Assembly: GCA_964609085.1 (NCBI GenBank)
Contig: CAZSRZ010000001.1
Coordinates: 658 to 64,657, forward strand
Direction of reading: 5' to 3'
Origin: an uncultured bacterium
Lineage (GTDB): Bacteria; Armatimonadota; SYMT01
DNA length: 64,000 bases
A model generated the notes under the pieces. The model was given only the letters and a program-made list of their open reading frames with translations. It was not told the DNA's origin and did not search any database. Shown piece by piece: positions 26,712-29,629 of the stretch. A program made the position numbers and the translations under genes. How positions within the stretch are numbered: position 1 is the first letter of the stretch; every line of letters begins with the position of its first letter.

Positions 26712-27026
26712 ATGGCCAGGGTGATGACGCAACGGAATGGGAACAAGGGACGCACGCGCAGGGCTCAACAGCAGGCACTTCCGCTCGATGTGCCTTGCTA
26801 CCAGGAATTACTGCAGTCGGTACTCCTCAGCAGCGCTTCGCTGCTCGAGATGCTCGACCACGTGGAGCGAACACACTGGGAAGATCGGTTCCGCGGTTAC
26901 CGGGATGAAGTCGCGGCGCTGCGCACCACGCGAGAAGCCACGGAACCGTTCGTGATGCGAGATCCGGCCGAGGAACTCCAGGGTGAGGCATTGCGCAACG
27001 AGGTGTTGACGCTGTTCGCCGCTTGA
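26712..27026 (+). CDS. Hypothetical small protein (104 aa)
   Basis: GGAGG-type ribosome-binding site 7 nt upstream of the ATG. Non-repetitive composition. No recognised motif. Confidence 0.45.
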   Translation: MARVMTQRNGNKGRTRRAQQQALPLDVPCYQELLQSVLLSSASLLEMLDHVERTHWEDRFRGYRDEVAALRTTREATEPFVMRDPAEELQGEALRNEVLTLFAA

Positions 27027-27159: not shown

Positions 27160-28407
27160 GTGAGGTTCATCTTCCTGGGTACCGGGGGGTCCATCGTCAC
27201 CCCCACCCGCCACACTTCCGGGGTCTATCTCCCCGAGCTAGGGCTCCTGCTGGACGCCGGGAGCAACGTCTTCGCGTTGCGGCGGTTGCACGGCAACCGG
27301 CCGCTGCGAGTGCTGATGTCCCACTTCCATCTAGATCACAGCCTCGGCCTCTTCTTCCTGGCCGCCGGGTTGTTCCATGGAAGGGACGCGGACGTTTCGA
27401 TGGATGTGTGGGGACCCGAGAACGCCGGGGCTTTTGCCTCGATGGCGGGCCCCGACAGCCCGATCTGGCCGGTCCCCCTCCCCATCCGCCTGCACGTCGC
27501 GGGGGCGGACTTCCAGATCGATGGAACCCGTGTGCGGTCTCATGCTGTCCCGCATCACGGACCGTGCCTCGCCTACCGTCTGGATTTCGAGGACGGAACT
27601 TCGCTCGCCTACGTGACGGATACCTCCGCCCCGGGCGATTACCTCGATTTCGTTCGCGGCGCCGATGTCCTCATCCACGAGTGCGCCTTCGCCGATGAAG
27701 AGACGGAAATCGCTCGCGTGACCCAGCACTCGACGGCATCTGCCGTTGCGAGGGTGGCGCGAGAAGCTGCGGTGGGGGCACTCTACCTCTCGCACATGGG
27801 TCCGCTCTACCACGGACTTGAGCTACTCGACGCCGTGAGAGAAATCTTCCCGGGCGCCATACTGCCGGTGGAAGGCGTCAGCTACCCCTGTGAGGTCGCG
27901 CTCGACGCTACCCGAGCCATTTTCCCCGGGAGCTTCGACCCCCTCACAGCCGGCCACCTGGACATCATCCGCTCGTGCGGCGAGATGTTTCGCAGCCTGG
28001 ATGTGGTCGTGGCAAGGAACCCTGCCAAGGACGCCGGCGCCCTGTTCACGGCCGAAGAGAGGGTTGAGTTGATCCGCAGGTGCGTGCCTGCGGAGGTACG
28101 TGTGGCCGCCTGGGAGGGTCTGACCGTCGACTATGCCCGCCGTGTTCAGGCCGGTCGGATCGTCCGTGGTCTGGGCCGGGCAGAAGACTACTTCGGCGAG
28201 ATCCGGCTCTGGAAGACCAATTCCCTCCTGCAGCCTGAGATCCACACCGTCTGGGTGCCGCCGGATCCCGCTCATCTGGACGTCTCCTCCTCGATGATCA
28301 AAGAGGCAGGTCTTCTGGGAGGCTGGGCGGGCGTGAGGCACCTGATACCGGCACCCATCCGAGCGGACGTGGAAGCCAGGCTGGCTAGCCGGCGGGGGTC
28401 AAGTTAG
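27160..28407 (+). CDS. coaD: Bifunctional fusion: N-terminal MBL-fold metallo-hydrolase domain plus C-terminal phosphopantetheine adenylyltransferase (CoaD)
   Basis: N-terminal HFHLDH motif (HxHxDH) in a roughly 250-aa MBL-like domain. From about residue 255 there is a complete CoaD signature: IFPGSFDPLTAGHLDII, FTAEERVELIRR, SSSMIKE. There is no stop and no alternative start codon between the two parts. Confidence 0.8.
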   Translation: MRFIFLGTGGSIVTPTRHTSGVYLPELGLLLDAGSNVFALRRLHGNRPLRVLMSHFHLDHSLGLFFLAAGLFHGRDADVSMDVWGPENAGAFASMAGPDSPIWPVPLPIRLHVAGADFQIDGTRVRSHAVPHHGPCLAYRLDFEDGTSLAYVTDTSAPGDYLDFVRGADVLIHECAFADEETEIARVTQHSTASAVARVAREAAVGALYLSHMGPLYHGLELLDAVREIFPGAILPVEGVSYPCEVALDATRAIFPGSFDPLTAGHLDIIRSCGEMFRSLDVVVARNPAKDAGALFTAEERVELIRRCVPAEVRVAAWEGLTVDYARRVQAGRIVRGLGRAEDYFGEIRLWKTNSLLQPEIHTVWVPPDPAHLDVSSSMIKEAGLLGGWAGVRHLIPAPIRADVEARLASRRGSS

Positions 28408-29629
28408 GCGAGGGATCTTCCGGGATCGGCAGCACCAGGAAGACGCCCAGGAATGGCACCAGGCAGAGCCAGGTGAGTGCCGTGGGTAGGCTGACGGCGT
28501 CGGCCGCCGCACCCAGAGGCCACGCCAGGAGTTGCGCCAGACCCCAGGCCAGGCCGGTGATCAGGCTCGCGGCGATGCCCGCACTGCGCGGCATCAGCTC
28601 CTGGGCGAGCACGACATTTCCCGGATGCGGCAGCATGAGAATGAAGGCTCCCAGCGCCAGCCAGGCCAGCATGGCCGTCCCATCCGCCTGCAGCCCGGCT
28701 AGCAGGGGCAGTGGGGCCAGAATGAAGGAGGCCATCATCAGACGGCGACGCCCAAAACGATCCGCCCACGCCCCACCGATCGGCCCCGCGAAGGCGCTGG
28801 CCAACAGGAACGCGCTCACGGACGCGCTCGTGGCCACCAGCCGTTGGCTCTCCGGAAACCGGGACTGGACCAGGAACGGAAGGAACGTCGTCATCCCGAT
28901 CTGTACGGCCGATCGGACGACCACGGTCGCGGTCAGCGCCGCAAGGGCAACCGATCGACACGCAGGGAGTTCTTCGCGCGCCGTCGCCGCCCGCGGCTGC
29001 GCCTGCGCGCGCTCAGCCCCCCGGAGCCTGCGGAACGCCACCAGCAGGATCACAGAGACGGCTATGGCGGGCACTGAGGCGAGATAGAAGCGCTCGAGGC
29101 CGAACCAGTGGCCGTAGAGGGCACCGAGAACGGGCGCGAGTCCAAACCCCAGACTGCCGCCGACGGTGAATACGCTCATTGCCAGGCTGCTGCCTCGACC
29201 CGCCTTGCGAGCCAGCATCGCTCCCTGTGGATGGAAGGCGCCAATTCCGAGGCCGGCGCAGAACATCAGCGTGCCGAGTTGGACGTAGGAACCCGCCTGC
29301 CCGAGTTGTCCAATGAGCATCCCCGCCACCAGGGGCCCCAGCGCCACCAGGCACCAATCCGGACGCCGATCGGAAATCCAACCGAACAGAGGCTGGGCCA
29401 GAGAGGCCGTAAGCCCCATCAGCACCGGAAGAGTGCCGATCTGAGCAAGGGAGAGGTGCAGCCGAGCGCCGATCTCCGGAAACATGGGCGAGATCAGACT
29501 CTGCCCGTAGCTATCGGTGATCGCATGGGCGATGGCCAAGAGGACGAGCCAGGCCGTCACCGGCGCGACGATCCCCCGGCCGGATCGAGCAGGAGCGGCG
29601 GTATGAACCGCGGTCCGCTCAACCGCCAT
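28385..29629 (-). CDS. MFS transporter
   Basis: 414 aa with about 12 hydrophobic segments. Convergent with the coaD-fusion gene and overlaps it by 23 nt. Confidence 0.8.
   Translation of the reverse strand: MAVERTAVHTAAPARSGRGIVAPVTAWLVLLAIAHAITDSYGQSLISPMFPEIGARLHLSLAQIGTLPVLMGLTASLAQPLFGWISDRRPDWCLVALGPLVAGMLIGQLGQAGSYVQLGTLMFCAGLGIGAFHPQGAMLARKAGRGSSLAMSVFTVGGSLGFGLAPVLGALYGHWFGLERFYLASVPAIAVSVILLVAFRRLRGAERAQAQPRAATAREELPACRSVALAALTATVVVRSAVQIGMTTFLPFLVQSRFPESQRLVATSASVSAFLLASAFAGPIGGAWADRFGRRRLMMASFILAPLPLLAGLQADGTAMLAWLALGAFILMLPHPGNVVLAQELMPRSAGIAASLITGLAWGLAQLLAWPLGAAADAVSLPTALTWLCLVPFLGVFLVLPIPEDPSPNLTPAG

Follow-up and report, generated by a model that had tools for sequence, protein, structure and literature searches.

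We analysed a 64,000-nucleotide stretch of DNA from an uncultured bacterium of the Armatimonadota (contig CAZSRZ010000001.1, positions 658 to 64,657; hereafter the window), in which a single open reading frame (ORF) joins a metallo-β-lactamase (MBL)-fold hydrolase domain to CoaD, the phosphopantetheine adenylyltransferase (PPAT) of coenzyme A (CoA) biosynthesis. Comparative sequence evidence indicates that this fusion is a genuine two-domain protein maintained by selection, and both domains are likely to be catalytically competent. The explanation we favour as a whole, a genuine protein pairing a PPAT with a hydrolase of the RNase Z lineage, is one that we hold with moderate confidence. CoaD is essential, a drug target, and normally a standalone protein of ~160 aa. 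Both domains belong to well-known superfamilies. A literature search for an MBL-CoaD fusion or an MBL-type acyl carrier protein (ACP) phosphodiesterase found nothing, and the only annotations that the fusion bears in public records are 'pantetheine-phosphate adenylyltransferase' and 'ribonuclease Z'.

The fusion ORF occupies positions 27160-28407 of the plus strand and comprises 415 codons, as an earlier sequence-only reading of this DNA had claimed, with a GTG start and a TAG stop. The GTG start is supported because the N-terminus it generates, MRFIFLGTGGS, coincides in the alignment with the N-termini of most homologues. The first domain (res. 1-243; 27160-27888, plus strand, as are all features of the ORF) is an RNase Z-like MBL core that lacks the flexible arm and contains the HxHxDH metal-binding motif HFHLDH (res. 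55-60; 27322-27339), read in the sequence and invariant in both alignments made. The inter-domain junction EVALDAT (res. 244-250; 27889-27909), with the clade consensus xxxVDPRR and a fixed length in 20 fusions, leads into the CoaD domain (res. 251-406; 27910-28377), identified by the NCBIfam model TIGR01510, the match to Thermus thermophilus PPAT 1od6 and Foldseek. This domain contains the T/HxGH nucleotidyltransferase motif TAGH (res. 263-266; 27946-27957), aligned to T15-H18 of Escherichia coli PPAT; the sequence RGLGR (res. 336-340; 28165-28179), a clade-specific variant of the PPAT motif RGLR in which the second Arg lies one residue further on; and an SSS motif (res. 376-378; 28285-28293) that aligns with E. 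coli PPAT Ser128-130. Domain hidden Markov models from Pfam and NCBIfam agree with the earlier assignment of an MBL-fold domain followed by a complete CoaD. Pfam places Lactamase_B_2 at res. 29-213 (E 1.3e-15) and CTP_transf_like at res. 254-382 (E 1.7e-14) of the 415-aa protein. All the motifs quoted by the sequence-only reading are found in the translation, namely SHFHLDH (res. 54-60), AIFPGSFDPLTAGHLDII (res. 253-270), EERVELIRR (res. 299-307) and SSSMIKE (res. 376-382). Its statement that the junction holds neither a stop codon nor a plausible start is right as regards the uninterrupted frame and needs amending as regards starts, as two in-frame GTG codons lie nearby, at res. 226 and 237. 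No Shine-Dalgarno-like sequence lies ahead of either codon, so a separate initiation of CoaD is unsupported, though not strictly impossible.

The case for a genuine fusion rests on recurrence, a conserved junction, synteny, uniform composition and a structural model. In a search of 5.8 billion proteins, with homologues counted as cluster representatives, ~50 representatives (405-443 aa, 54-65% identity) covered at least 97% of the fusion query. All of these full-length homologues carry both PF12706 and PF01467, and their source assemblies belong to JGI, ENA, Logan and NCBI; an orthologue search of this kind had been proposed as a check on the fusion. An alignment of 20 fusions shows that both halves and the junction are conserved with almost no insertions or deletions. 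The junction consensus, LPVEGLEYPRxxxVDPRRAxFPGSFDP, is collinear and fixed in length, with an invariant Asp249. Independent scans recovered the fused gene in 4 of 185,579 GTDB species-representative genomes (two metagenome-assembled genomes (MAGs) labelled Armatimonadota, one labelled 'uncultured bacterium' and one 'Actinomycetota') and at nine full-length and two partial loci in metagenomes. Related loci keep the gene order S9-like peptidase, small ORF, fusion gene. The composition is nearly the same on either side of the junction, with a GC content of 65.3% versus 65.7% and a third-position GC content of 0.79 versus 0.77. An AlphaFold2 model built from a 71-sequence alignment predicts a compact two-domain chain with a predicted local distance difference test score (pLDDT) of 93.7 and a predicted template modelling score of 0.90 over its whole length, and no drop in pLDDT at the junction. 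These scores fit two domains in a fixed arrangement better than two domains joined by a flexible tether. It is this convergence of homologues, junction, scans, synteny, composition and model that leads us to regard the fusion as real and under selection.

The fusion clade is narrow and confined to uncultured bacteria. A split intermediate, in which the MBL and coaD genes of this clade would lie adjacent but separate, was sought in the genome and metagenome scans and found in neither. Four MAGs that bear differing NCBI phylum labels (L001-L004) carry the same fused gene at 60-63% identity, and at least one of these labels is probably wrong.

The C-terminal half is predicted to be this lineage's own CoaD, converting ATP and 4'-phosphopantetheine into dephospho-CoA. 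It passes the coaD equivalog model TIGR01510 (res. 252-406; 129 bits, cutoff 103.3), shares 34% identity with E. coli PPAT and matches T. thermophilus PPAT (1od6) at E 9.6e-29. In Foldseek, the modelled half superimposes on E. coli PPAT (6b7a/5jbn) with a template modelling (TM) score of 0.93 and a root-mean-square deviation (RMSD) of 1.3 Å, and the PPAT fold is present. The E. coli residues T10, H18, K42, R88 and S128-130 correspond to S258, H266, K290, R336 and S376-378 of the fusion, all invariant or nearly so in the clade, with either Ser or Thr at position 258. T263 and H266 of the TAGH motif are invariant in the 20 aligned fusions, H266 being the equivalent of the catalytic His18. Thr10, Lys42 and Arg88 of PPAT bind the 4'-phosphate, and Arg91 of the Helicobacter pylori enzyme contacts the β-phosphate of ATP, its R91A mutant being inactive (PMC12784347). 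The Arg91 position is occupied throughout the clade by an invariant Gly (G339), followed one residue on by an invariant Arg (R340), which generates RGLGR. Among 149 CoaD representatives, ~125 had a detectable motif, nearly all with Arg at this position (one with Lys), and the Gly-Arg arrangement occurred in the fusion clade only. PPAT activity is strongly suggested by this pattern of conservation, short of certainty.

Two further signatures, WKTN and FGGW, are specific to the CoaD domains of this clade, and AlphaFold2 assigns low confidence to the segment at res. 341-350. An exhaustive comparison of the CoaD domain with 1.84 billion representatives returned just four matches at E < 1e-30, and identity to ordinary CoaDs lies at 35-47%. 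Other CoaD architectures were seen among the representatives (P0127, 378 aa; P0128, 244 aa; P0158/P0188/P0227, 349-374 aa), and include tandem CoaD-CoaD proteins, a CoaD with a partial internal duplication, and fusions of RsmD (Cons_hypoth95) to CoaD.

The most fitting description of the N-terminal half is an arm-less phosphodiesterase that resembles RNase Z and looks active; it is not a true RNase Z. In both sequence and structure it comes closest to Bacillus subtilis RNase Z (1y44; Foldseek E 5e-17), YhfI (6kns) and BA1088 (1zkp), the latter two being arm-less ELAC homologues to which it aligns with TM scores of 0.83-0.84. The alignment to B. subtilis RNase Z skips residues 154-201 of that enzyme, so that the flexible arm is absent and the domain measures ~243 aa. 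This arm, or exosite, defines tRNase Z and binds tRNA (PMC3161902). The metal ligands of motifs II-V (H55, H57, D59, H60, H132, D154 and H212) all show no variation across 71 homologues, whether fused or standalone. The HEAT (H173-E174-C-A) and HST (H190-S191-T192) motifs, which hold the proton-relay residues, are also present, with H173 and H190 invariant in the same set. The PxKxRN loop of RNase Z is replaced by the variant TPTRHT (consensus TPxRHT), in which neither the Lys nor the Asn is conserved. On family models, the domain scores 106 bits against a cutoff of 293 for TIGR02651 (RNase Z), and 81 bits against a cutoff of 400 for NF041851 (cyclic nucleotide-degrading phosphodiesterase), although the latter aligns end to end over res. 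1-235; a Pfam scan of the fusion protein gave no match to PF23023 at E <= 0.01. The motif SHFHLDH (res. 54-60) fits [T/S]HxHxDH, the signature proposed for atypical class-II cyclic nucleotide phosphodiesterases (PMC9293780). The domain is probably an active two-metal phosphodiesterase, and would act on a small phosphodiester and not on pre-tRNA.

The nearest standalone relatives of the MBL half are 38-44% identical, measure ~244 aa, and occur mostly in Planctomycetes. The idea that these proteins might also sit beside coaD was rejected: they are consistently followed by a gene for a Zn-ribbon class-I S-adenosylmethionine (SAM)-dependent methyltransferase (317-329 aa). Such MBL-methyltransferase pairs were seen at L007 6001-7767, L010 6001-7685, L013 3161-4342 and L033 64-2340, often after a 6-phosphogluconate dehydrogenase gene.

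An independent linkage between coaD and an MBL gene exists in Myxococcota. Two operons place coaD directly before an MBL gene, one in Archangium violaceum (CP069396; L016 4507-5747; coaD scoring 169 bits for TIGR01510) and one in Sandaracinus amylolyticus (CP011125; L018 4498-5735; 148 bits). Both follow the order TetR regulator, AmpG/RhtX-like major facilitator superfamily (MFS) transporter, coaD, MBL, and in both the MBL start codon shares nucleotides with the stop codon of coaD (TGATG in Archangium, ATGA in Sandaracinus). Downstream of the MBL gene lies a 5'-nucleotidase in Archangium and PhoD in Sandaracinus; further downstream, the latter genome encodes a FabH-like protein, an α/β-hydrolase and an AMP-binding enzyme. 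The same two domains are also fused in the reverse order. The 405-aa protein P0228 contains CoaD at res. 5-133 followed by an MBL/Apyc1-like domain at res. 167-390, and five more clusters with this architecture (P0275-P0279, 54-72% identity) bring the reverse-order clusters to six. Standalone MBL proteins of ~248 aa from Myxococcota share 60-67% identity with the MBL half of P0228, and a reverse-order fusion locus (L019 6001-7242) retains the upstream TetR gene. In hhalign, the myxobacterial MBL subfamily is homologous to the MBL half of the window fusion but distant from it (probability 98%, 17% identity). Because the two MBL subfamilies are so distantly related, the linkage of CoaD to a short MBL hydrolase has arisen at least twice, and in both domain orders, a recurrence that suggests a functional link. 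We considered whether the window locus and the myxobacterial operon have an MFS transporter in common and rejected the idea, as no homology could be detected between their MFS proteins.

One relative of the fusion has a standalone coaD. P0126 is a 174-aa CoaD, 75% identical to the CoaD domain of the window and one of the four matches at E < 1e-30, encoded at L015 1044-1568 (JGI 3300064040, Ga0604922_0069063) in the syntenic slot of the fusion gene. The locus reads S9-like peptidase C-terminus, small ORF, 113 bp, coaD, and a cyclase/caspase-like gene that is also found at L001 and L005; it has no MBL gene and no space for an MBL domain. P0126 carries the clade signatures RGLGRAEDY and FGGW, and its start, MPAASVNPRHA-IFPG, aligns with the fusion linker xxVSVDPRRA-IFPG and reads as a remnant of it. 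It is 74-77% identical to many fusions and 62-66% identical to the basal fusions P0047, P0048, P0050 and P0051. A neighbour-joining tree of CoaD domains, which is not strong (~170 columns), places it inside the fusion clade. As this coaD nests within the clade and keeps the linker remnant, P0126 probably reflects a secondary loss of the MBL domain. The sequence-only reading had held that close relatives with separate genes would speak for an artefactual join. L015 is the only relative of this kind, and domain loss describes it better than an artefact does. The locus also indicates that the CoaD moiety is the resident coaD of this genomic site and would work on its own.

What the two halves do together is a more delicate question, and we regard a functional link between the two activities as an evenly balanced proposition. 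The proposed coupling of a phosphodiesterase to CoA metabolism is not read directly from the window, and it gains support from the independent coaD-MBL operon and the reverse-order fusion in Myxococcota. PPAT consumes a phosphomonoester and phosphodiesterases make phosphomonoesters; the most economical coupling would therefore be a diesterase that releases 4'-phosphopantetheine. The MBL phosphodiesterase would free 4'-phosphopantetheine from a phosphodiester, for example a holo-carrier protein or a CoA-derived compound, and the product would pass directly to the fused PPAT to re-enter CoA. This specific release and hand-over is the mechanism that we prefer, though we consider it rather doubtful. 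A bolder version is slightly less probable still: the arm-less domain would be a new 4'-phosphopantetheine/CoA phosphodiesterase, for example an ACP phosphodiesterase outside the HD family or a hydrolase of a CoA-derived phosphodiester, which forms a compact salvage unit with PPAT and has the same partnership in Myxococcota.

Several observations weigh against a PPAT coupled to its hydrolase. The Arg91 equivalent is displaced in the CoaD half. No gene for CoA, ACP or pantothenate metabolism lies within ~12 kb of the fusion. The standalone MBL relatives are paired with a methyltransferase and not with coaD, and within the myxobacterial MBL subfamily the link is not universal, as some of its genes do not neighbour coaD. 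The RsmD-CoaD fusions join CoaD to an apparently unrelated partner, and a fusion thus need not have a metabolic basis. Finally, the L015 lineage appears to have lost the MBL domain and kept coaD, and the domain would thus not be indispensable in cis.

Some of these points feed the principal alternative, a real fusion without metabolic coupling, in which the MBL domain would be a general or cyclic-nucleotide phosphodiesterase of the YhfI, Rv1339 or Apyc1 type that merely came to be co-expressed with coaD once the genes had been joined, as in the RsmD-CoaD fusions. The [T/S]HxHxDH signature, the fold similarity to YhfI and BA1088 and the end-to-end alignment of NF041851 are all as this explanation would have it. 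So are the RsmD-CoaD and tandem CoaD-CoaD proteins, which indicate that CoaD tolerates unrelated partners, together with the loss of the MBL domain at L015 and the methyltransferase pairing of its standalone relatives. However, the NF041851 score falls far short of its cutoff and PF23023 does not match. The association of coaD with MBL arose twice, from distant subfamilies, in both orders and also as a translationally coupled operon, and the conserved junction and compact two-domain model likewise argue against an uncoupled fusion. On this evidence an uncoupled fusion is possible, if somewhat unlikely.

Two further alternatives concern one half each, and both appear improbable. In the first, the MBL domain tethered to CoaD would be an endonuclease that processes tRNA or other RNA in the manner of a minimal RNase Z or RNase BN. 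The best sequence and structure matches of this half are indeed to RNase Z, and the HEAT (H173-E174) and HST (H190-S191-T192) residues and a PxKxRN-like loop are retained (PMC3161902), but the TIGR02651 score lies well below the cutoff, and an RNA-nuclease role is disfavoured because the flexible arm is missing. In the second, the CoaD-like domain would be a diverged paralogue with another nucleotidyltransferase function, and a canonical coaD would lie elsewhere in the genome. The clade-specific RGLGR in place of the near-universal RGLR, the modest identity to any other CoaD representative and the low-confidence segment of the model would be in keeping with such a divergence. Against it, the equivalog cutoff is passed, all other catalytic and phosphopantetheine-binding residues are conserved, the fold matches that of E. 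coli PPAT closely, and 35-47% identity is the normal level between phyla. The sequence-only reading had left an artefact standing beside a genuine fusion. That two genes were joined by an assembly error, a frameshift or a chimera is extremely improbable and was rejected on comparative grounds: the same in-frame architecture recurs in ~50 independent assemblies, the junction is conserved, the composition is uniform and the structural model agrees. We found no point in favour of an artefact.

A small ORF of 104 aa (26712-27026, plus strand) lies directly upstream of the fusion gene and is kept in synteny at every related locus. Its counterparts, which range from 104 to 125 aa, are located at L001 5456-5833, L002 5356-5688, L005 9567-9890 and L015 602-931, and share the invariant C-terminus G(E/D)xLxxEVxxLFAA. 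The small ORF has no match in Pfam, PADLOC or PHROG, and may be co-transcribed with coaD. At the opposite end, the fusion ORF overlaps a convergent MFS transporter gene (28385-29629, minus strand) by 23 nucleotides (28385-28407). An extra nucleotide-cyclase-like/caspase-like gene (~600-650 aa) separates the coaD or fusion gene from the MFS gene at L001, L005 and L015, and is not in the window. The neighbours within ~12 kb of the fusion otherwise include a two-component system, FG-GAP and tetratricopeptide repeat proteins, an oxidoreductase, the S9-like peptidase and the MFS transporter, as well as an esterase-like protein, a Leu/Phe-tRNA-protein transferase, a sigma factor, MarR, Mfd and an acyltransferase. 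The resemblance to Apyc1 prompted us to consider an origin in defence, anti-defence or phage, which was rejected: there were no PADLOC matches, and the PHROG and BFVD matches were generic only.

The interest of the fusion depends on which of these explanations applies. If the link is one of co-expression only, the protein adds modestly to the range of known domain architectures. It would be of considerably greater interest if the phosphodiesterase acts in 4'-phosphopantetheine/CoA recycling. In most bacteria, no enzyme is known that recycles 4'-phosphopantetheine from carrier proteins. The conserved fusion and, in a second phylum, an independent operon and a fusion of opposite order form a classic Rosetta-stone signal, which raises the possibility that short RNase Z-like MBL proteins, widespread and uncharacterised, act in or near CoA/4'-phosphopantetheine metabolism. 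The fusion offers an easily expressed candidate with a defined panel of possible substrates, and a testable clue to what arm-less RNase Z-like MBL proteins do.

Compared with known systems, the CoaD half is closest to bacterial PPAT (T. thermophilus 1OD6, E. coli 1B6T). Its 156 C-terminal residues pass TIGR01510 and contain the T/HxGH motif and the equivalents of K42, R88 and SSS; what sets the fusion apart is the additional 250-aa N-terminal MBL domain, the displaced Arg91 equivalent and the WKTN and FGGW signatures. The MBL half shares its fold, HxHxDH, motifs III-V and the HEAT/HST-type residues with short-form RNase Z (tRNase Z-S) and with the tRNase Z-like proteins that have no flexible arm; it has no exosite arm itself, scores below the RNase Z model cutoffs and is fused to CoaD. 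At ~245 aa it is similar in size to the arm-less ELAC homologues (PMC3161902), among which YhfI (6KNS) is devoid of the HEAT and HST histidines that the window protein keeps. With the atypical class-II phosphodiesterases (Rv1339, Corynebacterium glutamicum CpdA, YhfI and phage Apyc1) it has in common [T/S]HxHxDH, PF12706 and the end-to-end alignment to NF041851, and it differs from them in falling far below the NF041851 cutoff and in matching neither PF23023 nor any PADLOC model. The myxobacterial operons and fusions (L016, L018, P0228 and P0275-P0279) likewise combine a bona fide CoaD with a short MBL hydrolase of ~245 aa, but in the opposite domain order, with a distant MBL (17% identity), TetR and AmpG/RhtX-like MFS genes upstream and 5'-nucleotidase or PhoD downstream. 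RsmD-CoaD proteins join CoaD to a methyltransferase, whereas the partner in the window is an MBL hydrolase. In eukaryotes, COASY fuses PPAT to dephospho-CoA kinase, the next enzyme of the pathway, unlike the MBL hydrolase that precedes CoaD in the window protein.

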